Below the pieces are notes generated by a model that worked only from the letters and a program-made list of their open reading frames with translations, made no database searches and was not told the DNA's origin. A stretch of DNA of 64,000 nucleotides, taken from assembly GCA_030018435.1 (NCBI GenBank), contig JASEEY010000005.1, positions 38 to 64,037 on the forward strand, in the 5' to 3' direction. This document shows, piece by piece, positions 18,481 through 63,939 of the stretch (positions are counted from its first letter, which is position 1; every line of letters begins with the position of its first letter). The translations under genes and the position numbers were made by a program. This DNA comes from Methanocellales archaeon. GTDB lineage: Archaea; Halobacteriota; UBA148; JAUWXC01.

Positions 18481-18593
18481 CGCCGCCAACAGGACTCGAA
18501 CCTGTGACAGCCTGGTTTCCGCGCAACTTTGATCAAACTTTCTCAAAGTTTGTGGTTAACAGCCAGGCACTCTACCAACTGAGTTATGGCGGC
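18481..18593 (-). tRNA. tRNA-Asn (anticodon GTT) with an approximately 40-nt intron at the canonical 37/38 position
   Basis: Manual fold: acceptor GCCGCCA/TGGCGGC, D-arm ACTC..GAGT, anticodon stem CCTGG/CCAGG with loop CTGTTAA, T-arm ACAGG TTCGAGT CCTGT. Confidence 0.6.
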
Positions 18594-21394: not shown

Positions 21395-23239
21395 ATGATG
21401 AAGAATATGACGATACCAAAGACGATTTGGCGGCTTCTAATTATAGCAATACTCATAGCGATTGTATCTGCTTTGGGGATATCGTTATTAACCGTAAGTG
21501 TTTCTGCGGATGGAGGGATGGGTGGACCCGATTGTGTTCACTGTCATGATATCAAAGGAGGAGATGAGGGGCATAAGGGACATGTGGACGTTTCCGCGAT
21601 GAATCAAACGAATTCAATTCACGTCAATTTAAACAGCGGTGTTAGTACGTCCTTAAATCCTGATAATAAGCGTTGCTGGGCATGTCACGGCAATGGCACT
21701 CAACCCTCTGGACACGGGCACCCATCTAATTACAAGAGCCCTTACATCTGCTTGGATTGCCACATTTCTGGTGGCTCTCAGGTTGAGAAGTATAATGCTC
21801 CAATCGTCTTTGAGCACTACAGGAATGGCATGGACATAAAGGCGGCAACAAATGCATCAACAGACGTATTGGCCTGTATATCCTGTCATCAAAACGTGAA
21901 TGAGATGGTCTTATCAAACTCTGACCCTGATTATGGTCACAACATAACTGATGTAGATAAAGACGGAGTCCAAGGTGGCCCTAACTGTACCTATCACTAT
22001 GGCAGAAAGAGAACTGATCTGCAAACTGGTACTCCTCCCTATACCAACTGTTCATACTGCCATCAGAACGCCTCGACGGCATTTCCCTTTGTCAATGCAG
22101 ACCTCAAGAACCTTGAGAATCACACGCCAAGGATTACGAATCCCAGTTGTGTTGATTCCAGATGTCATGATGTTGGCCGGATACACAATTCAACACTGAA
22201 GATGCCGACGACCGTGGATTATACGCTGTGTACTGACTGTCATGGAGGCAAGAGCAGACATAACGATACTCTGGATTGCACAAAATGTCACGGGAATGCC
22301 ACGAACAAGATTCATCCAATCTTATATCTTGCATCTGACGGTACTTTTTCCACTTCGAACGTTTCGGCAGTGAACTGTATATCATGTCATCAGGAAGGAT
22401 ATATGGGCCCGCAAGTTTCTGATCCACTTCACCACAGCGAAGTAAACACAGGACAGCGCTGGGGCGATTATTGGACAGACGATTTATCCGCATGCACATA
22501 CTGTCATGACGATACAAAGCATGACGCAATAGCATTGGGAAGACCGGCAAATTGGAAAGGAGACAACATCGTTGGCTCATCCGTCAACAACAGCTACTGG
22601 TGTGCAGGCTGTCATTATCAGGGATACCAAAGTGGTGCACACAGCTACGAAAATATGGTTAACACATTCAATGGCTCTGGCTTAAACATCCCGCCAGAAA
22701 TCACCAACGGCACGTATGCACCCAACGTAACAGGATTCTATGAACACGTATGCGCTAACTGGTCAGATGCGCTCTGCAAAGAATGTCATGGCAAGTTTGT
22801 CAGCGGTTATAATGTAACCGAACTCATGCACAACGTTTCAGACGGCAGCTGCGGTAACTGCCACTATGACTTTGCATATATGAATGATGCCCGAAATGCG
22901 CCCACGAAATACGTGAACAGCACGATGTTCAATGCGAGCGTGCATGGGCCATCGTCGGGAATAGGGTGCGTAGACTGCCATACTACCTCAAATCATCCTT
23001 ACCCGGAGTATTACTGGAAGTGGTGCGAGTGCTGCCATGCCGTACAATCTAACCCTGTCGATGATACGGACAGGCACAACGTCACATCTGATGTGCGGAA
23101 CAACATGGTTGACGGTGTTTCAGTCCTCAGCATAATCGACTGTAAGACATGCCACAATGCAACCTCTTACGAAAATGCAAAGACCAATTTTGGATTGTGC
23201 AGATGGTGCCATACATATCCTGATAAAACATATGAGTGA
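21395..23239 (+). CDS. Multiheme c-type cytochrome, about 16 CxxCH plus one CX4CH, N-terminal signal anchor
   Basis: Counted CxxCH: CVHCH, CWACH, CLDCH, CISCH, CSYCH, CTDCH, CTKCH, CISCH, CTYCH, CAGCH, CKECH, CGNCH, CVDCH, CECCH, CKTCH, CRWCH, plus CVDSRCH; hydrophobic N-terminus. Confidence 0.85.
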   Translation: MMKNMTIPKTIWRLLIIAILIAIVSALGISLLTVSVSADGGMGGPDCVHCHDIKGGDEGHKGHVDVSAMNQTNSIHVNLNSGVSTSLNPDNKRCWACHGNGTQPSGHGHPSNYKSPYICLDCHISGGSQVEKYNAPIVFEHYRNGMDIKAATNASTDVLACISCHQNVNEMVLSNSDPDYGHNITDVDKDGVQGGPNCTYHYGRKRTDLQTGTPPYTNCSYCHQNASTAFPFVNADLKNLENHTPRITNPSCVDSRCHDVGRIHNSTLKMPTTVDYTLCTDCHGGKSRHNDTLDCTKCHGNATNKIHPILYLASDGTFSTSNVSAVNCISCHQEGYMGPQVSDPLHHSEVNTGQRWGDYWTDDLSACTYCHDDTKHDAIALGRPANWKGDNIVGSSVNNSYWCAGCHYQGYQSGAHSYENMVNTFNGSGLNIPPEITNGTYAPNVTGFYEHVCANWSDALCKECHGKFVSGYNVTELMHNVSDGSCGNCHYDFAYMNDARNAPTKYVNSTMFNASVHGPSSGIGCVDCHTTSNHPYPEYYWKWCECCHAVQSNPVDDTDRHNVTSDVRNNMVDGVSVLSIIDCKTCHNATSYENAKTNFGLCRWCHTYPDKTYE

Positions 23240-23245
23240 TGAAAT

Positions 23246-23668
23246 ATGCTGTCAAGTAGAAGAAAAGCGGTCATAATCGGCATTGCGATGGTGATGGTTG
23301 CCACATCACTGACAGCATATGCCCTATTTTTCGGCGGTCACACGCTCTACACTAGGAAGGATTCTCCAGATTACGGCTCTGCAGAGTTCTGCGTTAAATG
23401 CCATCCGGATGTCGTCGCCACAGCGATGGTCGGCGCGCATCAAAACGCAGGATGCATCTGCCATGGCTATCGTCCAGAAGAGGGCATCAATTTAGCGCAC
23501 AACCTGACCAAGCAGATATACTGCACGAACTGCCATTCGAACTATGACGCAGAAGGAAACATCACCATTCATGAAGGGGTGAGCGGATTAAATCAGTCAG
23601 GGCATTATATTACGAACTATACCGCTACGCTTTACAATAATTCACAACAATTCTTCAGCGGTAGTTAA
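23246..23668 (+). CDS. Small membrane-anchored c-type cytochrome (2-3 heme sites)
   Basis: N-terminal TM; CVKCH, CTNCH and an atypical CICH. Confidence 0.6.
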   Translation: MLSSRRKAVIIGIAMVMVATSLTAYALFFGGHTLYTRKDSPDYGSAEFCVKCHPDVVATAMVGAHQNAGCICHGYRPEEGINLAHNLTKQIYCTNCHSNYDAEGNITIHEGVSGLNQSGHYITNYTATLYNNSQQFFSGS

Positions 23669-23670
23669 CT

Positions 23671-24171
23671 ATGGTCAGAAGAGCGTTAATTTTGTTCACG
23701 GTATTAATTTTACTGGAAGCGTTGGTTCCTATAACGAGCGCCACCGAGATTCAGTGGCATGGATATGAAGAGGGTATGGCGCTTGCCAACTCCAACAATA
23801 TGTCAGTTATGATCGATTTCTATACGGAGTGGTGTGGGTATTGTAGAAAACTGGACGACGAAGTGTACGTGGATGACGAGATCATCGCGTTATCTGAAAA
23901 TTTTGTGAATATCAAGGTCGATTGTAATGCCCGTCCTGATCTACGGCAGAAATATGCTGTAACGGGCTACCCGACGATCGTGTTTTTAAATTCCAATGGA
24001 GACGAGGTTCATAGAGTGTATGGATATGTACCAGCAGATGAGTTCAAAACAGACATGCAAATCGCCTTAAACCTAAAAGATGCAACACCAACACCCACGC
24101 CTGGATTTGAAGCAGTACTTGGCGTAGCGGCGTTGATTAGTTTGGCGTTCAGGAGAAAATCGAATGACTGA
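23671..24171 (+). CDS. Secreted thioredoxin-fold thiol:disulfide oxidoreductase with PGF-CTERM sorting signal
   Basis: Signal peptide; WCGYC active site; Thr/Pro linker then PGF + TM + RRK tail (TPTPTPGFEAVLGVAALISLAFRRK). Confidence 0.75.
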   Translation: MVRRALILFTVLILLEALVPITSATEIQWHGYEEGMALANSNNMSVMIDFYTEWCGYCRKLDDEVYVDDEIIALSENFVNIKVDCNARPDLRQKYAVTGYPTIVFLNSNGDEVHRVYGYVPADEFKTDMQIALNLKDATPTPTPGFEAVLGVAALISLAFRRKSND

Positions 24172-24816
24172 TATATCTCCTTTAATCGCATTTTCTGCCG
24201 GAATCGTGAGCGTACTATCACCGTGCGTGCTCCCTCTTATTCCTGCGGTGATGACATACTCTACAGGAAAAGGACGGCTCAGGCCGTTGGCGATAGTGAT
24301 TGGACTATCGATGGCCTTCACCTCCATGGGCATAGTAGCCTCAGCCTTGGTATGGCATTCATCAGTTATGCACAATACCTGCGAATGGCTGCTGCTCTCA
24401 TAATCGTTTTTCTTGGACTTTACATGTTGTCCGAGTCACTAGAACGGAAATTGTCGATGCTAAAAAGCAGGATACTACCGAGTTTGAATCTTCCTACATC
24501 ATCTTCTAGCGTTTTAGGAGGGTTTATACTCGGACTATCGCTGGGCATCGCATGGGTGCCCTGCATAGGTCCGATACTCGGCACCATCTTAGTATTGGTA
24601 ACAATAAAAGCCAGCCTGTTCTATGGCGCGATGATGCTATTCATTTACTCACTTGGGCTAGGTATTCCGATACTTGTAATCGGCTATGTCACAAAGTCAT
24701 CTATGCAACTCGGCAAATTTGCTCGATACGGTGCAACCATCAAACGTGTTACCGGGGCAGTGCTGATCGTCGTTGGGTTATATATGATGTTACATTTTCT
24801 ACCCATAACGTTTTAA
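24164..24816 (+). pseudogene. ccdA: Cytochrome c biogenesis protein CcdA (DsbD-like), interrupted by a 1-nt frameshift near 24345-24356
   Basis: The N-terminal half (SPCVLPLIPAV) is ORF 24164-24403 and the C-terminal half (WVPCIGPILG) is ORF 24223-24816 in another frame. The junction at ttgg(g)tatggc suggests loss of one G. Confidence 0.7.
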
Positions 24817-25050: not shown

Positions 25051-25356
25051 ATGCCTGCTACCGTATCTGTGCGATTGGACGATGAAATGATAAAGGATAT
25101 CGAGCTATTAAAGGAAGAGTCACAAGTGGACAGGTCTGAGATGGTGAGGAAACTATTGGACAGGGCATTAAAGCAAGCCAAGATCGAAAAAGCCATAGAA
25201 CTGCTCAGAAAGCATAAAATCTCAATTGGAAAAGCCTCTGAGTTAGCCGGGATGACTTTGTATGAAATGATCGAGCTGTGCAAGACGCGTGACATACATA
25301 TCGGGTACTCTATAGGGGACTTAAAAAAGGACTTGGATCAGTTTCCGATCAGATAA
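25051..25356 (+). CDS. UPF0175-family antitoxin (RHH-like N-terminus + UPF0175 domain)
   Basis: Sequence pattern ..IGKASELAGMTLYEMIELCKTRDI. Confidence 0.55.
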   Translation: MPATVSVRLDDEMIKDIELLKEESQVDRSEMVRKLLDRALKQAKIEKAIELLRKHKISIGKASELAGMTLYEMIELCKTRDIHIGYSIGDLKKDLDQFPIR

Positions 25357-25366
25357 GGTGTCTTAG

Positions 25367-25876
25367 TTGAGAGCAGTGTTGAATTCTACTCCGCTCATCT
25401 ATCTAGCCAAGATAAATCACTTAGACTTGTTAGGAAAAGTTTATGATCAAATCTACATCCCCACTCCTGTTTATGAAGAAACTGTCCAGAGGGGTCTGGA
25501 AAAGAAATTTTTGGATGCTGATATCATCAAGAATGCCGTTGACAGGGGAACCATTGAAGTTAGAGAGTTGACCTCGGAACAAAAGGCTGAAGCGAGGAGA
25601 CTAATCCAATTTGCAAATATAGGCGGAGGAGAGGCTGAAGCAATAGTGCTGGCAAAACATCTTAACATCGAATTGATGATAGATGATGTGGTTGCCCAGG
25701 GCGTTGCCAGAACTTTAGGATTAGATGCACACTGGACAACCAGTTTTATAATCAGACTGGTCAGCAAAAAGTTAATTTCTCGAAAAGAGGCCAGAAAAAT
25801 GATTGAAGATTTGGTGAGCAGTGGATACAGGATAAGTGAAGAAGTGCTCATCGAAATACTAAAAGTGTTGAGTTAA
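25367..25876 (+). CDS. DUF3368/COG2405 PIN-like toxin
   Basis: 169 aa; partner position downstream of the UPF0175 antitoxin; paralog of 28006-28503. Confidence 0.55.
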   Translation: MRAVLNSTPLIYLAKINHLDLLGKVYDQIYIPTPVYEETVQRGLEKKFLDADIIKNAVDRGTIEVRELTSEQKAEARRLIQFANIGGGEAEAIVLAKHLNIELMIDDVVAQGVARTLGLDAHWTTSFIIRLVSKKLISRKEARKMIEDLVSSGYRISEEVLIEILKVLS

Positions 25877-27680: not shown

Positions 27681-28022
27681 ATGATTTGTAATGTGATGAA
27701 GATGGGCAACGTCCAGGTAAGAATATCTAATGAGATGTTAGGCGAGATAGACAGGCTGAGCAGGATGCTCGAAAGCTCAAGATCAGAAGTGATCAGAAAA
27801 GCCCTTGATGATGGCATAAGTCGCATAAAAATGGAGGCGACTCTGAGAGATTACATAGATAACAAGATAACGTTGTGCAAAGCAGCTGTACTGGCTGGAA
27901 CGTCTGTCATGGAGTTTGCAGAGTACGCTGCAGAAAAGGGCATCCCATTCATGAGATATGGGGCAGAGGAGGCTGAAGAGGATCTGTTAAGGTTGAGGAA
28001 ACGGCATGAAAGTGCTGATTGA
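27681..28022 (+). CDS. UPF0175-family antitoxin (second copy)
   Basis: RISNEMLGEIDRLSRM.. RHH-like then ..LCKAAVLAGTSVMEFAEYAAEKGIP. Confidence 0.55.
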   Translation: MICNVMKMGNVQVRISNEMLGEIDRLSRMLESSRSEVIRKALDDGISRIKMEATLRDYIDNKITLCKAAVLAGTSVMEFAEYAAEKGIPFMRYGAEEAEEDLLRLRKRHESAD

Positions 28023-28503
28023 CGCTTCTTCACTGATAGCGTTAACAAAGACAGGATCGCTTGACCTCATCAAGGACGTCTTCGGCAGAGTTTTTATAAC
28101 CAAAGAGATCGAGAAAGAGATCACATCTGGCACTTTAGCTGACGTTGCAATCCTGAAGGGGAAGATCAAAGACTGGATTGAGGTCATCGAATCTCCCAGT
28201 TCCAAAGAATATTACACGAAACTAAAAGGACTGGATGAGGGAGAGTGCAGCATCCTCGGATATGCAAAGGAAAATAAAGACGTTTTACTCATATTAGATG
28301 AGGTAGAGGGCAGAGCAGTCGCAGAAGCCGAAGGTTTTACTCACACCGGAACTCTTGGATTGATCGTCTATGCCTGTGAAAAACGCATAATATCAAAATC
28401 CAGGGCGATGGGAATAATCAAGAAGCTATCCAGAAGTGAGTTCAGAATGACCACTGAGCTATATGACTGGGCCTTGACCAAGATAGAGGCTGTCAAGAAG
28501 TGA
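28006..28503 (+). CDS. DUF3368/COG2405 PIN-like toxin (second copy)
   Basis: MKVLIDASSLIALTKTGSLDLI.. PIN-like N-terminus; overlaps the antitoxin stop. Confidence 0.55.
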   Translation: MKVLIDASSLIALTKTGSLDLIKDVFGRVFITKEIEKEITSGTLADVAILKGKIKDWIEVIESPSSKEYYTKLKGLDEGECSILGYAKENKDVLLILDEVEGRAVAEAEGFTHTGTLGLIVYACEKRIISKSRAMGIIKKLSRSEFRMTTELYDWALTKIEAVKK

Positions 28504-47721: not shown

Positions 47722-47795
47722 GGGCTCGTGGTCTAGTTGGTTATGACGTCGCCTTGACATGGCGGAGGTCGCCGGTTCGAATCCGGCCGGGCCCA
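47722..47795 (+). tRNA. tRNA-Val (GAC)
   Basis: Manual cloverleaf; anticodon loop TTGACAT; T-arm GGTTCGAATCC. Confidence 0.8.
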
Positions 47796-47857
47796 TCAAA
47801 AGGTATAAACTTGAAAAACGTACAAGATAACGTCGGTTAAAAGGTGCCGACACTTTT

Positions 47858-47931
47858 GCCCTGGTAGCTCAGCCTGGGAGAGCGTGCGGCTGAAGACCGC
47901 ATTGTCCCCGGTTCAAATCCGGGTCAGGGCA
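47858..47931 (+). tRNA. tRNA-Phe (GAA)
   Basis: Manual cloverleaf; anticodon loop CTGAAGA; T-arm GGTTCAAATCC. Confidence 0.8.
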
Positions 47932-47951
47932 TGCGCATTCGCTCAAACTTT

Positions 47952-48023
47952 GCGCTGGTAGTGTAGTGGTTATCACTATGGCTTGCCAAGCCATAAACCC
48001 GGGTTCGAATCCCGGCTAGCGCA
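47952..48023 (+). tRNA. tRNA-Gly (GCC)
   Basis: Manual cloverleaf; anticodon loop TTGCCAA; T-arm GGTTCGAATCC. Confidence 0.8.
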
Positions 48024-48049
48024 TGACGAAGGAATGCGATGGCCGGCAT

Positions 48050-58192: not shown

Positions 58193-59289
58193 GCGCAGAA
58201 GCGAAAACGGAAGGAAAGGATGAACTGACAAAGAAAAAGCTGATTGACATCATAGGAGAATTTTACGGTCAGCTACAGAGCGAGAGAGTTCCTTACCTCA
58301 ATCTGCCGACCAGAACCAAGGCTAACATTGAATACAATGATGCGTCAGAGGTGTGGGTTTACGGCGACAGAGAGAGTGTGAGGAGTGCAAAAACCGTCAG
58401 GGGGGCATACCAGTTACTCAAAACCTCATATGTAGTGGATTTTCTGAACGCCCAGTTAGATCAGGCAAAATCTTCCACGTTGAGGGAGTTGTACTATATC
58501 TCCGAGAACTGGGACTTGGCAAAGTTTAGGGAACAGCAGGAAAGCGATAGGTTGATAGAAGACCTGGAAATCGTGAGTGAGCTACAAAGGGAGAACTTCC
58601 ATATCAGGCCGGAGGAGGATGGCGCCTCTGTTTTGGGTCCCATCAAGATCAAAGAGCAGACGAGAAGGGGCACAAAGATCATCCATTGCCAAGATGACGT
58701 TGGCGAAGGGGGGTACCAGATACCCAACAACGTCGATAACCTGGAGTTTTTGGAGCACGATGCAAAAATGATCATAGCGATAGAGACTGGTGGTATGAAG
58801 GATAGGCTGATTGAGAACGGCTTTGACGAAAAGTTTAACACGATCATAGTGCACCTGAAGGGTCAGCCGGCCAGAAGCACAAGGCGATTGCTCAAACGGA
58901 TGAACGAAGAGCTGAAGATACCCGTAGTGGTGTTCACCGATGGGGACCCGTGGTCGTATAGGATATTCGCTTCCGTCGCATATGGGGCGATAAAGAGCGC
59001 CCACCTATCAGAATACATGGCGACTCCTGCAGCACAGTTCATCGGCATTCGCCCCTCGGACATAGTCAACTATGAATTACCAACGGATAAGTTGTCTGAC
59101 CAGGACATAAGAGCTTTGCATTCGATGCTCTCTGATCCAAGATTCGAAAGTGAGTTCTGGCAGAGCGAAATCAATCTGCAACTTGAATTAAACAAGAAGA
59201 GCGAGCAACAGTCGTTAGCGAAGTACGGATTGGATTATGTGACGGATACATATCTGCCAGAACGGTTGAGTGAGATGGGTGTCATCTAA
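58189..59289 (+). CDS. top6A: DNA topoisomerase VI subunit A (Spo11 homolog)
   Basis: 366 aa; Toprim region IAIETGG; ATGA overlap with top6B. Confidence 0.9.
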
Positions 59290-60185
59290 AGTCTCTCGGT
59301 TTTTCTAAACGTGGATACCTCGCGCAGTAGATTGTGCAGTGTAGGGGGCAATTTTCCCTTCAGCATGTAAATGCTCCATGCGTAGTATATGTATGCATAG
59401 ATACCGAGAACGATGTAGAGAGAGCTGAACATGATCTCGCTCGGCAGCAGGATGTCCATGAGGATTGTGACGGTCGGGATTATCAAGATAGGTACAGAGC
59501 CCCAGACCCAGACGCCAACATTATGCCACAGATTATACTCAGTAGTGATGCCAATCCACCATATGAAGAACATCGCCGTCACCACATAGGGCACAAAGCC
59601 CCTGGGATATTGTACCATGAACAGAAATGCTGCGAAGGTGATGTTTATCAGCACGACGATTTTGATGAGAAACAGTATTGGATCAGAAGGATATGTCCCG
59701 CCCCCCAACCTTGAAGACGTTCCTTTGCTAACAGCTCCTCTGCCACCAAACGCGCCAACGCGCTCCTTTAGGTCGTCGATGCTGACGTCGATCGTATTCA
59801 TCTTCTTGGTTGCTTCTTCCAGCCTAGCCTGTACGCTAGCAATCTCCTTGAGTAGCGGCTTCAGCCGCCTGTACACGCCTTCCTCAAATGCGGTGTCAAT
59901 CATGCTCTCGAATAGAAGCGCCTGTTTGACCAAGGAGAAAGCGCCAAGCCCTGCGCCTATTCCAATAAACAAGATGATCGAATTCTTGATGAGCTCCAAC
60001 TTGCTGAATTCATAGGTAAAAACGCGGATGAGTGGGAAAATTGAGATATAAATCAGGAATAACGATGCGCATAGTGCGCAAGCGATGTTCAATTTTTGTA
60101 ATAACGACAAACGCTTCTCTTGCATTGTCACGTGCTCTCTCCACCCGTTATTTAGGGCATTATGTATATCTTTTCTTCGGTGCAT
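59286..60185 (-). CDS. Hypothetical polytopic membrane protein with internal coiled coil
   Basis: ORF hydropathy only. Confidence 0.4.
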
Positions 60186-60981
60186 CTGGATTGCTATGCA
60201 AATAATGATCGGTGCTCACTGAAACAGGGCTAACCTCGGTATGGCTATGACATCCCAGACAAGTCCAGAAGCCCTTGGATATGTACTGTCCATCCGGAGC
60301 GATGTTTCCGCCTGGCTGCCCGAAGGGGTTTCCGTCCATGTACGATGAGCTCTCACTGTTAGCGCTGGTATAAAACGGCACGTGAACATTGTCCTTGCTT
60401 AACAAGTAGCCCACATGTACGACACTTGAAGAAGCATTCGGGAATAGATCTGGATCGTTGTATTGATGCACTGCATTGCCGTGACACCTGTCATCATCAC
60501 AACCCCTCGCGGTCGTGTTCGTGTGCGTTGTGCTCAAACCAAAAAGCGTTGCCTTGTGGCACAGGAAGCACATCTCATCGACGTTGATATATCCATCTCC
60601 ATCGTCGATGCTCACGAGCAACAGTTTTCCATCACTACTTCTCTGCCACTTTTCCTCGGTGGCGTTCCATATCCATACATCGCTGACACCATTACCGTCT
60701 CCATCGTAATTCGTCCATATGGTCGCATTGGTTTTGTCATAATCAATCCCGCCGACCGATAGATAGGTGAGATAGTCGGTGTTGTTTGCAGCCCTCCGAT
60801 GCGCTTCGTAAACATCACCCATGTCAGCGCTCAACTGATCTGCCACATCAATATGGCAGCGCAGGCACCCTACATTGGTTCTGAAGGTATGCTGACCTGC
60901 GAATAAGGAGTAAACTGCCGGTAAAACAAATAAGATGATGGCAATCGCCGCTAGGATTAATAGCACGGTTTTTTGTTTCAC
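60160..60981 (-). CDS. Membrane-anchored c-type cytochrome (3 CxxCH + 1 CX4CH) with two dockerin/EF-hand-like Ca-binding loops
   Basis: CLRCH, CFLCH, CLGCH, CDDDRCH; loops NYDGDGNGVSD and DDGDGYINVDE; N-terminal TM with LFAGQH motif. Confidence 0.7.
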   Translation of the reverse strand: MKQKTVLLILAAIAIILFVLPAVYSLFAGQHTFRTNVGCLRCHIDVADQLSADMGDVYEAHRRAANNTDYLTYLSVGGIDYDKTNATIWTNYDGDGNGVSDVWIWNATEEKWQRSSDGKLLLVSIDDGDGYINVDEMCFLCHKATLFGLSTTHTNTTARGCDDDRCHGNAVHQYNDPDLFPNASSSVVHVGYLLSKDNVHVPFYTSANSESSSYMDGNPFGQPGGNIAPDGQYISKGFWTCLGCHSHTEVSPVSVSTDHYLHSNPDAPKKRYT

Positions 60982-61019
60982 GCTCTCACCGATTATGTTA
61001 ATTTATCTTACTAATTATA

Positions 61020-61754
61020 TTAAACGCTTTTTACCTTAAACTCTTCCAGCGTCATGTAGAGATAAAGCGCAATCATGATGATGAATAGCAGGAGCCCAGA
61101 ACTCTTCACCATCTGCACCAGCGATTTGATGAGTCCATATTCCCCTCCATACTTGGTGACGTAGATTGGATTGGCTGGATCCTCGATGAAGTAATAGCCG
61201 AGATTCTCGATGATGATGGGTTTTTCATTTAGTAGGATTGCCTGACCCTCGATCTCGTTTCTGCGCACAACCCAGGGATCAACTCTGGGATTGGCATCAC
61301 CTTTTGTCCTGTATATCCCATCCTCAATGGAGTAAATCCTGTGCACCACAGGATGCACGACGTATGCAGTCTCAAATTTGATTATGTCGCCCTCCTGGGG
61401 ATTCACGAAAAGGTTCTGCATCAAAACCAAGTCACCCTTGTTGAACGATGGTGCCATACTACCAGAGCCTATAGCAACGAAGTAGATTATGTTCAGGTAA
61501 AGGATGATTCCCAGCAACATCACGATGATGAGCGGAAGCGCAGACGTCACGATGCGCGGCTTTTTGGAAAGTTCCTCATACCTGCGCATGATCATGTTGA
61601 TGCGGTCTTCCCTGCTGCGCTCAATAAATCTATCTGCGATTTTTCCGAGCAGGGCAAATGGGTAGATGGCGCTCCTTCTCTTGATCATATACAGCGTGCA
61701 AAAGATGGCGATTAGAACGCCCATCCAGATGACTAAGCCAATCGTATTGCTCAT
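61020..61754 (-). CDS. Archaeal type I signal peptidase (S26B/Sec11-like)
   Basis: Catalytic-Ser motif AIGSGSMAPS, conserved His/Asp region; two flanking TMs. Confidence 0.75.
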   Translation of the reverse strand: MSNTIGLVIWMGVLIAIFCTLYMIKRRSAIYPFALLGKIADRFIERSREDRINMIMRRYEELSKKPRIVTSALPLIIVMLLGIILYLNIIYFVAIGSGSMAPSFNKGDLVLMQNLFVNPQEGDIIKFETAYVVHPVVHRIYSIEDGIYRTKGDANPRVDPWVVRRNEIEGQAILLNEKPIIIENLGYYFIEDPANPIYVTKYGGEYGLIKSLVQMVKSSGLLLFIIMIALYLYMTLEEFKVKSV

Positions 61755-61868
61755 ACCAACCTCAGATGATCATTGACCCTTCAATAAAAAGGAAGAATAA
61801 ACTAAAAAAAGAAAAAGATGGTGGTCTAAGACCACCATTTTTGTTTTTAGTCAGTAGTCGCAGTTAGC

Positions 61869-62405
61869 TTATGGATAACCGCCACCAGATGTCGTGGTTG
61901 TGTTAGTGCCTTCTGCAGTGAAGTTACCAATAACCCATCCCGTCACTGGATCGTGATCTGCTGTGAACGTCAATGTAGTCGCTCTGATCCATGTGATGTT
62001 CACGCCGGTGTGGGTGTGGCATCCAATGCATGCTTCATTTGCCCCTGTTTCAAGTCCAGATGTCATCGCACCCTGATAGAACTCTGTGTGGGATTCGTTT
62101 GCGTGGAGAAGTTCATCGTCCACCTTGTCATGGCAAGCTACGCACGGCGGTGATATTGAAGCATGTTGGGTTGCATTATCGAAGCCAGCTTTAGGGGTTT
62201 GGTGACAGGCCCCGCACTTAAAATAATAGTGCGGCCCACCCGCAGCCAATTCATCGTATTCTGCACCGTGACACTTGGAACAATCCACATCCTTGGGTCC
62301 TATGAATGCGTGCTGCCCTGCAAACAACGAAAGCACTGATGGCAGTACGAACAGACCGACTGCTAACACTGCTGCTACTAACACAAGCGTTTTGTTTCCT
62401 ACCAT
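61869..62405 (-). CDS. Membrane-anchored tetraheme c-type cytochrome
   Basis: CSKCH, CGACH, CVACH, CIGCH; N-terminal TM plus LFAGQH motif. Confidence 0.75.
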   Translation of the reverse strand: MVGNKTLVLVAAVLAVGLFVLPSVLSLFAGQHAFIGPKDVDCSKCHGAEYDELAAGGPHYYFKCGACHQTPKAGFDNATQHASISPPCVACHDKVDDELLHANESHTEFYQGAMTSGLETGANEACIGCHTHTGVNITWIRATTLTFTADHDPVTGWVIGNFTAEGTNTTTTSGGGYP

Positions 62406-62559
62406 TTTTGTTCTCCCTTTAAATCATTCACAATTCTATACGGACGCCTTGCACTTGGCGTCATGAAATCCTACTTTTAGGATTCCTTGAACGGGATTAT
62501 TTACTTTGTTAATATATAAGTTCTTTGCTATTATTGTTATGCCGTTCAGATGTGATCGT

Positions 62560-63939
62560 TCACCATTTGATGTAAATCTTCGTCCTTACCTCGTACCTGT
62601 TATTGTGGTTGTCTTCGATTAGAATCCTTACATCACGCTCTCCTGTCCTCGCCCTGCTTAGGTCATACTGATCGACCGGTATGTTGGAGCCGTGACAGGA
62701 GTCACACCACCCTTTGCCCATATGCTTATCATGAAGTCTATATGTCGAACTGTAATCTTTATAGCGGTGGCAAATGTAGCACTGCTCTTTTGGATTTACG
62801 TTTAGCACCTCATCCTGATCATGACATCCCACGCAAGTGATCTCATCACCGTGTTTCTCGTGAATTCGCCTGGAGTCTCCATCGTACGATTTGCCGCTGT
62901 GACAGTTATTGCATGATGTTATCGGCGTGATATCAGGCACATCTAAACCATGACACCAATAACAGAAATCACCGGATTCACCAATGTCCTTCTTGGCGTG
63001 CTTCATGTGCACATCCGAGTAAACCTTGTTAGGATCGTATCTCTCTGGCGAGCCATGACAGATGGCACAGTATTCCCCGGAAGGTTCTAGGGTAGTGCTT
63101 GCCGGAATGGCGTGACAATCGCCACACAGCGCTTTATCATCATGCTTCTTGTGCATGCTCGCATACCGGCTTGAGTAATAAGCTGGATCGTACTTGCTCC
63201 CATGACATAGTTGGCAACTGTAATCATGCGGCATGCTTGGATGACATGAGTAACAATCCGCTGTCGTCGGTGTCACGCTTGGATTTTCATGGCATAGTGC
63301 GCAGTTATCATTGTGCGTGACCATCAAGTTCGAGTTGTGGCAGTAGATACAGTCGCCCGTGGTGGATACATGCACCGCTTCTATGTCGCCATGGATCACG
63401 TGACACGCATCACAGGCAGTGTTCTTAGTTGATATGGCATTCTGAACTGTTGGATCCATACTGGCGTGACATGTCGAGCAGTTATAGCCTCTATTCTCAT
63501 GCTCTATCGTTAGGTCATTGTCATGACAACTCAGGCAATCGGGGGTTAAACTTGATTGATGTATCTCTGTCATGTTGTGCACTGCTTCATGACAATTTTC
63601 GCATGTATATACAATGGGGACCCCCGCCGGCGTCCCGTGCGAGCCGTGTGGTACATTTGCAGGGTCATGACAATCAGAACAGATAATGTTTAAGTGACAT
63701 TGATTGCAGGTCTCGTCCATTCCAAAATCTTTTTCTATATGAGGATTATGCACCTGATTCGCAGTGAGATTCGTAGGATCGGTTCCAAGTTGGAAATATC
63801 CACATGGAGTGTATACCGCAGGCCATGTATATTCTGGGGGAGACCAAGTCTGCCATACCGTTTTGGCCTTATATTCGGTATGACAATTCCAACAAACGGT
63901 GGATCGGTCTATAGGTGGCGTCGTAAAAATCGACAACAT
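62560..63939 (-). CDS. Multiheme c-type cytochrome with 18 CxxCH in 459 aa; 5' end probably frameshifted/extends past window end
   Basis: 18 CxxCH counted. No signal peptide on the annotated ATG; an alternative frame just upstream encodes a hydrophobic stretch plus CSQCH. Confidence 0.75.
   Translation of the reverse strand: MLSIFTTPPIDRSTVCWNCHTEYKAKTVWQTWSPPEYTWPAVYTPCGYFQLGTDPTNLTANQVHNPHIEKDFGMDETCNQCHLNIICSDCHDPANVPHGSHGTPAGVPIVYTCENCHEAVHNMTEIHQSSLTPDCLSCHDNDLTIEHENRGYNCSTCHASMDPTVQNAISTKNTACDACHVIHGDIEAVHVSTTGDCIYCHNSNLMVTHNDNCALCHENPSVTPTTADCYSCHPSMPHDYSCQLCHGSKYDPAYYSSRYASMHKKHDDKALCGDCHAIPASTTLEPSGEYCAICHGSPERYDPNKVYSDVHMKHAKKDIGESGDFCYWCHGLDVPDITPITSCNNCHSGKSYDGDSRRIHEKHGDEITCVGCHDQDEVLNVNPKEQCYICHRYKDYSSTYRLHDKHMGKGWCDSCHGSNIPVDQYDLSRARTGERDVRILIEDNHNNRYEVRTKIYIKW

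Follow-up and report, generated by a model that had tools for sequence, protein, structure and literature searches.

In a 64,000-nucleotide stretch of contig JASEEY010000005.1 from a Methanocellales archaeon (the window), an open reading frame (ORF) at positions 23671-24171 encodes a predicted exported thioredoxin (Trx) that ends in a PGF-CTERM signal and is followed directly by a gene for CcdA. By profile, by fold and by its fused bacterial relatives, the Trx domain is assigned to the gamma (C-terminal) thioredoxin domain of DsbD, and the archaeal pair is a predicted split DsbD, comprised of a gamma gene followed by a beta gene and lacking an alpha domain. DsbD is known, as are PGF-CTERM signals on cargo other than S-layer proteins; a split DsbD with a sortase signal as the predicted tether of its gamma domain is a further variation on these systems and not a system of a new kind. 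The reading favoured here, with moderate confidence, is that the membrane-tethered Trx is reduced by the adjacent CcdA and may keep the haem-binding cysteines of exported cytochromes reduced.

The elements of the ORF are located as follows.

23671-24171, plus strand: Trx ORF, 166 amino acids; DsbD-gamma-type thioredoxin, predicted to be exported, with a PGF-CTERM tail
23671-23742, plus strand: signal peptide, residues 1-24, read from the sequence as MVRRALILFTVLILLEALVPITSA and followed by TE; predicted cleavage after TSA
23743-24078, plus strand: thioredoxin fold, residues ~25-136, from Pfam and NCBIfam profile matches and the core of the structure model
23830-23844, plus strand: active site W54-C55-G56-Y57-C58, read from the sequence
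23971-23973, plus strand: cis-proline P101 in the loop GYP101T, read from the sequence
24079-24099, plus strand: short Thr/Pro-rich linker DATPTPT, residues 137-143 (D137-ATPTPT143), read from the sequence
24100-24168, plus strand: PGF-CTERM tripartite signal, from PF18204, TIGR04126 and a Methanosarcinales PGF profile
24100-24108, plus strand: P144-G145-F146, read from the sequence
24109-24150, plus strand: hydrophobic helix E147-F160, 14 residues, read from the sequence
24151-24159, plus strand: basic R161-R162-K163; the last three residues, SND, and the stop codon follow

By inspection, the N-terminus has an n-region that is basic, a core that is hydrophobic and a cleavage site between TSA and T, and Ala24 is near-invariant among the aligned homologues. 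The AlphaFold2 (AF2) model of the protein has a helix at residues 2-17, a low-confidence stretch at 19-24 and a plain thioredoxin topology, with a predicted local distance difference test score above 90 in the core (mean 78.7). An earlier sequence-only reading of this region had listed the signal peptide, WCGYC, Thr/Pro linker, PGF, hydrophobic helix and basic tail, all of which are present, and its prediction of an exported thioredoxin-fold CxxC protein was borne out by sequence and fold. On that basis, export and thioredoxin chemistry are considered almost certain for this protein.

The subfamily of the domain was addressed with profile and structure searches. The best NCBIfam match was to the C-terminal domain of TsoB (7e-23, profile positions 443-569 of 572), and DsbD was matched at 1.6e-15 (profile positions 467-570 of 574); the next matches were DsbH and PDI domains. 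The cut-offs for full-length DsbD were not reached, as expected for a single domain. Pfam returned Thioredoxin_2 (4.5e-16), Thioredoxin (7.2e-16), Thioredoxin_7 and DsbH. Foldseek searches with the AF2 model recovered ERp19, Thermus thioredoxin, DsbH, the gamma domain of DsbD (1uc7, 2fwg, 1vrs and 6dnl) and 3f9u, the last being the C-terminal domain of an 'exported cytochrome c biogenesis-related protein'.

The domain had been described in the sequence-only reading as CcmG/ResA-like, and this membership was rejected, profile and fold evidence both being against it. The ResA model (PRK03147) gave E 0.012 and 15.5 bits against a cut-off of 170, and the DsbE model (TIGR00385) E 0.11 and 12.1 bits against 123; the ResA and DsbE/CcmG models aligned to only ~17-25 residues around the CxxC, and Pfam Thioredoxin_8 reached 18.6 bits of the 27 required. 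The structural comparison proposed in that reading, with ResA and CcmG and their N-terminal hairpin and central insert, was made, and none of the 50 best Foldseek matches in the PDB was a ResA, CcmG or TlpA structure; the best profiles and folds were instead those of DsbD gamma and TsoB. Many of the top profile matches hold 2-17 tandem copies of the same thioredoxin type, and a DsbD-like protein of 555 residues from Sumerlaeota (locus L013, 4181-5848) consists of a membrane beta domain and, after it, a tandem pair of gamma thioredoxin domains, with no alpha domain.

The Trx gene lies in a compact cassette with three other genes.

21395-23239, plus strand: multihaem c-type cytochrome, 614 amino acids, 16 CxxCH motifs, N-terminal signal or anchor; matches Cytochrome_C7 (5e-18) and MtrC/MtrF domain II/IV (3.7e-15)
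23246-23668, plus strand: small cytochrome, 140 amino acids, N-terminal membrane helix, 2 CxxCH motifs, from sequence and motif count
24164-24816, plus strand: ccdA, the DsbD beta equivalent; Pfam DsbD_TM matches both of its pieces

A 6-nt gap separates the 614-residue cytochrome gene, the first of the cassette, from the 140-residue one; a 2-nt gap precedes the Trx gene; and ccdA, with its ATG at 24164, shares 8 nt (ATGACTGA) with the end of the Trx gene. The same 8-nt overlap occurs in the related locus L088, and through it ccdA is predicted to be translationally coupled to the Trx gene.

The relation between Trx and CcdA was examined in a scan of species-level genomes, in which the best 80 relatives of Trx were considered. 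Few of these were archaeal; many were bacterial (Ignavibacteria, Bacteroidota and others) at 31-39% identity. In most bacterial relatives the matching stretch was the last domain of an ORF of ~550-680 residues that also holds a CcdA/DsbD_TM domain, a full DsbD fusion that ties Trx to CcdA. An intact CcdA orthologue matched DsbD profile positions 170-382 of 574, which is the beta region, and also the beta region of TsoB. Since Trx matches gamma and CcdA matches beta, the archaeal pair is read as a DsbD divided between two genes.

A PGF-tailed Trx followed directly by CcdA was found in five archaeal lineages: the window clade, L004/L009, L010, L005 and L093. The window clade includes L002 and L003 (Trx 91% identical) and L088 (Trx 82% identical); L004/L009 and L010 are two metagenome-assembled genomes (MAGs) of tar-biofilm Halobacteriota; and L093 was the sole additional close relative among the matches listed from a metagenome scan. 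Methanosarcina, too, has a thioredoxin gene ahead of ccdA, and a functional relation between the two has been suggested (PMC6262447). From fusion and synteny together, coupling of Trx to CcdA is strongly inferred and held to be very likely.

Two further archaeal lineages encode an orthologous exported Trx that is followed not by CcdA but by a NapH/MauN-type membrane polyferredoxin (L006, 8709-9446; L007, 2792-3529; L011, 1743-2507; L014, 10507-11271). One of these lineages has a strong PGF tail; the other, Ca. Methanolliviera, has none. This arrangement suggests that Trx, as one and the same acceptor, may be served by a different electron conduit in the membrane.

The C-terminal tail was compared with several PGF-CTERM models. 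Pfam PF18204 was passed (22.5 bits against a gathering score of 18.8). NCBIfam TIGR04126 gave 22.7 bits on the whole protein, under its cut-off of 24.5, and 25.7 bits on the last 45 residues alone. The sequence-only reading had named TIGR03024, which we take to be the PEF-CTERM model and which was absent from the matches; TIGR04126 is the NCBIfam model that matched. TIGR04126 is reported to miss real PGF-CTERM domains in Methanosarcinales, organisms reported to carry archaeosortase A (ArtA), and lineage-specific hidden Markov models (HMMs) have been published (PMC9723798). A Methanosarcinales-specific PGF-CTERM HMM was rebuilt from the 406 sequences in the supplement of that paper. With it the Trx ORF scored 18.0 bits (E 6.7e-5), and the runner-up among 520 six-frame ORFs of the window scored 4.5 bits. 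Across a first set of 87 comparison loci (3,893 ORFs), scores above 5.5 bits were found only in Trx orthologues (11-22 bits); across 85 later loci (3,963 ORFs), only three further Trx orthologues reached E<=1 (10-16.5 bits). The expected PGF-CTERM architecture thus passed the Pfam and lineage models and was borderline on TIGR04126.

Conservation within the tail was uneven. P-G-F was invariant in all 12 aligned tail-bearing homologues, some of them only 41-46% identical to the window Trx; the linker before it varied in sequence and in length (from ~9 up to 27 residues), and conservation was poor in the helix that follows. Because the HMM separates these tails from other ORFs, and because PGF is invariant despite the varying linker and helix, the PGF-CTERM signal is judged real and under selection. 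A profile search returned 58,776 Trx relatives at E<=0.001, and tails were examined in the best 150 cluster representatives. A motif scan found a PGF-type tail in six of these (P0003, P0008, P0028, P0032, P0036 and P0113, the last scoring strongly on TIGR04126, at 33.9 bits), and P0083 was a further case recognised by the Methanosarcinales HMM.

In the proposed mechanism, Trx would be exported through Sec and its signal peptide removed. Archaeosortase A would recognise the PGF-CTERM, cut off the helix and basic tail and attach a lipid, so that the thioredoxin domain would be held within a few nanometres of the membrane. There Trx would take the part played by the gamma domain in bacterial DsbD: CcdA would pass electrons from cytoplasmic thioredoxin across the membrane and reduce the WCGYC disulfide, a step to which the split-versus-fused architecture points strongly, and the reduced Trx would then reduce disulfides of exported proteins. 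In the window clade, the favoured clients would be multihaem apocytochromes, the products of the genes immediately ahead of Trx, with their CxxCH cysteines as the targets. This is the least secure of these steps; if apocytochromes are the clients, Trx-CcdA would be the thiol-reducing arm of cytochrome c maturation.

The sequence-only reading had placed the thioredoxin on a 'surface-layer-directed stalk'. There are only ~7-10 residues between the folded domain and PGF, and the processed protein would therefore sit at the membrane surface beside CcdA. The same reading had noted that PGF-CTERM is best known on S-layer glycoproteins; this needs qualification, non-S-layer cargo having already been curated (TIGR04281, PGF-CTERM-anchored ABC substrate-binding proteins), so that enzyme- or binding-type cargo was already known. 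PGF-CTERM is also reported for small cytochromes of anaerobic methanotrophic (ANME) archaea (PMC9012536). Among the papers and curated families found, none describes a thioredoxin with a PGF anchor, and a search for hidden PGF tails beyond the stop codons or frameshifts of the window cytochromes found none.

Several observations weigh against the favoured reading, and they are taken here with the alternatives that they favour. The first set concerns the clients. It is only in the window's clade that the Trx gene has cytochrome genes before it (L002, L003 and L089), with the 140-residue cytochrome kept upstream of Trx in L002 and L003, and the large cytochrome having 605 residues in L002 and 964 in L089. 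Contigs with Trx-CcdA outside this clade lack cytochrome genes, though these contigs are short, and the neighbours of the pair in other lineages are unrelated (GAPDH, radical SAM, RNase HII). There are no Ccm genes within the 64-kb window. The CG[YWF]C active site is like those of DsbC and PDI and unlike those of dedicated cytochrome reductants; CGYC is the active-site motif of E. coli DsbC.

The gene neighbourhoods and the active site favour the view that Trx is a general extracytoplasmic disulfide reductase or isomerase, DsbC- or PDI-like, that is reduced by CcdA, has many clients and neighbours the cytochromes incidentally. PDI-family a-domains were the strongest PDB sequence matches of Trx, a local similarity to the DsbC active-site region was found with NCBIfam, and the dipeptide within the active site is not constant in the family (GY, GW, GF, PA, SW), as would suit a general reductase. 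Against this, the four-gene cytochrome cassette is tight, with 2-6 nt between genes, and at least three members of the clade retain it, and Trx is a monomeric single domain without the dimerisation or substrate-binding domain typical of isomerases. A general reductase is regarded as a possible but rather unlikely account, and the two roles do not exclude each other.

Apocytochrome reduction by the tethered Trx is thus considered plausible for the window clade, and less secure than the coupling to CcdA. The sequence-only reading had cited the position between cytochromes and CcdA in support of this function. That position holds in the window, but the cytochrome neighbours are specific to the clade and only Trx-CcdA is more widely conserved. 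Judged from this clade-specific gene order, the chances that apocytochrome reduction is the main task of Trx are about even. In most ANME archaea, CcmABCEF is present and CcmH is lacking (PMC9012536), and CcdA and CcmG both go unmentioned in a review on how cytochrome c matures in archaea (PMC4429474); a maturation role for Trx-CcdA would fill this gap.

The second set of observations concerns the tail and its processing. The whole Trx protein falls just under the TIGR04126 cut-off and orthologue tails reach only 17-19 bits on that model, more distant homologues match only Heimdall- or Loki-CTERM models below threshold, and P0083 has the PGF but no basic tail. A gene for archaeosortase A was also sought. 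The query was the M. blatticola ArtA from the supplement proteome of PMC9723798, which gives 225 bits on TIGR04125; the best 120 matches in a homologue search with it were all Methanosarcinaceae-like. A local ArtA profile detected no archaeosortase A gene in the 64-kb window or the 172 loci, its best match to any ORF of the window or loci being E 0.096, and exosortase/archaeosortase family models matched no multi-helix ORF of the window and nothing in archaeal loci.

Such findings would suit a plain transmembrane tail anchor that is never cleaved or lipidated, in which PGF is a helix-capping motif. That explanation is improbable: it does not account for an invariant PGF between a freely varying linker and helix, or for the pass on PF18204, or for lineage-HMM scores of 11-22 bits in the tails against at most 5.5 bits in thousands of background ORFs. 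A shortfall on TIGR04126 is also reported for real PGF-CTERM domains of ArtA-bearing Methanosarcinales (PMC9723798), and ANME-2a and ANME-2d carry ArtA (PMC5244752); for ArtA in the genome of the window, these occurrences are indirect evidence. From the conserved signal, processing of the Trx tail by ArtA is considered likely.

The last point concerns the electron donor. Alignment of the DNA with an intact 217-residue orthologue revealed that the window's ccdA has lost 1 nt from a run of G and is thereby split (GG at 24349-24350, GGG in the relative). The N-terminal piece spans 24164-24403 and the C-terminal frame extends to 24816; both CcdA cysteine motifs, SPCVLP and WVPCIGP, are encoded. 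The gene is intact (217 residues) in L002, L003 and L088. The adjacency to CcdA that the sequence-only reading took as support for a redox role is real, but in the window itself the neighbouring gene is frameshifted, and the proposed electron donor may be inactive there, barring a second copy or assembly from halves. Decay of the module in this population, with ccdA a pseudogene and Trx a remnant without electron supply, is favoured by the identical split in a separately assembled Logan contig (L001) as well as in the MAG, but it is the least probable of the alternatives and quite unlikely, since the Trx ORF, both cytochrome ORFs and both ccdA halves are otherwise intact and close to intact relatives (Trx 91% to L002), the MAG and the Logan contig may stem from the same reads, an in-frame ATG at 24352 could, speculatively, restart the second half, and a second ccdA elsewhere in the genome is possible.

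The tethered Trx-CcdA pair can be set beside several known systems. Trx resembles the gamma domain of the alpha-beta-gamma protein DsbD (E. coli, Neisseria) in profile and fold, and the adjacent CcdA resembles beta. The presumed electron path, from cytoplasmic thioredoxin through beta or CcdA to gamma or Trx, is the same, and the nearest bacterial homologues of Trx are gamma domains fused to beta. The window system differs in being two separate genes, gamma then beta; in retaining its thioredoxin at the membrane by a C-terminal PGF-CTERM signal instead of covalent fusion; and in lacking the Ig-like alpha domain, so that the gamma-type Trx must presumably meet its substrates directly. The active site of DsbD gamma is CVAC, whereas that of the window Trx is CGYC.

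With CcdA and ResA/StoA of Bacillus, or with CcmG/HelX, the pair has a common logic: a six-helix CcdA feeds a tethered extracytoplasmic thioredoxin-like protein, which reduces apocytochrome CxxCH. The need for an anchor in a cell without an outer membrane is shared with CcdA-ResA. The window Trx is nevertheless of a different thioredoxin subfamily (12-15 bits on the ResA and CcmG models), and the anchor of ResA and CcmG is a helix at the N-terminus rather than a C-terminal sortase signal. DsbC and the a-domains of PDI share with Trx an active site of the CG-aromatic/His-C type, and PDI a-domains match it strongly in sequence; the window Trx differs in having one domain only, with neither a dimerisation domain nor b-type domains, and in its predicted membrane tether.

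Among archaeal proteins, MaTrx6/MmTrx2 of Methanosarcina is likewise encoded immediately upstream of ccdA (PMC6262447). MmTrx2 has WCGPC and insertions (PMC6262447), in contrast to WCGYC in the window, and no Methanosarcina locus was among the 80 best genome relatives of the window Trx. For these two reasons, the Methanosarcina protein is probably not an orthologue. Known ArtA/PGF-CTERM substrates (the Haloferax S-layer glycoprotein, ABC binding proteins and small ANME cytochromes) have in common with Trx a tripartite C-terminal signal after a Thr/Pro linker and an N-terminal Sec or Tat signal; the window cargo differs from them in being a redox-active thioredoxin with a very short tether, its processing being predicted. 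The range of substrates that ArtA is known to process is diverse (PMC7157517).

The cassette is wedged in a large aromatic amino-acid biosynthesis cluster (18980-40651). EPSP synthase and chorismate synthase genes precede it; after it come genes for a GHMP-type kinase, chorismate mutase, prephenate and shikimate dehydrogenases, dehydroquinase, the trp genes and prephenate dehydratase. Two toxin-antitoxin-like pairs also lie downstream; in L088 there is only one such pair, and ccdA abuts the kinase gene. In addition to its two CxxCH motifs (CVKCH and CTNCH), the 140-residue cytochrome of the cassette contains an unusual CxCH (C70-I-C72-H73), and it has weak matches of the NrfH/DmsE type. Five genes of the window encode c-type cytochromes, one with 16 haem motifs and another with 18, and a second cytochrome cluster occupies 59286-63939 on the minus strand. 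To our knowledge, cultured Methanocella lack multihaem cytochromes of this kind. The nearest named relatives of the window AtpA are only 69-73% identical. Further features of the window are listed below.

25051-25876 and 27681-28503: two UPF0175/RHH and PIN-DUF3368 toxin-antitoxin-like pairs
62560-63939, minus strand: 18-haem protein, second cytochrome cluster
61869-62405, minus strand: 4-haem protein, second cytochrome cluster
61020-61754, minus strand: paralogue of archaeal signal peptidase I, three membrane helices, second cytochrome cluster
60160-60981, minus strand: 3-haem protein, second cytochrome cluster
59286-60185, minus strand: orphan six-helix membrane protein, no family match
18481-18593, minus strand: tRNA match of 113 nt in Rfam, probably intron-bearing, not called by ARAGORN
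47722-48024: three ordinary tRNAs (Val, Phe, Gly)

The orphan six-helix protein was considered as a sortase and rejected: it matched no Pfam or NCBIfam sortase family and was outside the ten best matches of the ArtA profile.

Proteins of the Trx type have so far been annotated merely as 'thioredoxin domain-containing protein'. If the architecture set out above is correct, a cell without an outer membrane would keep the function of the DsbD gamma domain as a separate tethered protein, and a redox enzyme would be added to the cargo of the archaeosortase A pathway. A broader proposal is tentative: that Trx and a membrane conduit form the missing thiol-reducing arm of archaeal System I (CcmABCEF, with no CcmH and no CcmG described), lipid-anchored by ArtA and plug-compatible with either CcdA or a NapH/MauN-type polyferredoxin. 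Such a plug-compatible module, if real, would mean that two alternative routes send reducing power across the archaeal membrane to one acceptor. The upkeep of reduced apocytochrome cysteines outside archaeal cells has hardly been addressed, and Trx-CcdA, encoded behind multihaem cytochromes, is a concrete and testable candidate for that task; the module may also be needed for the heterologous production of archaeal multihaem cytochromes.

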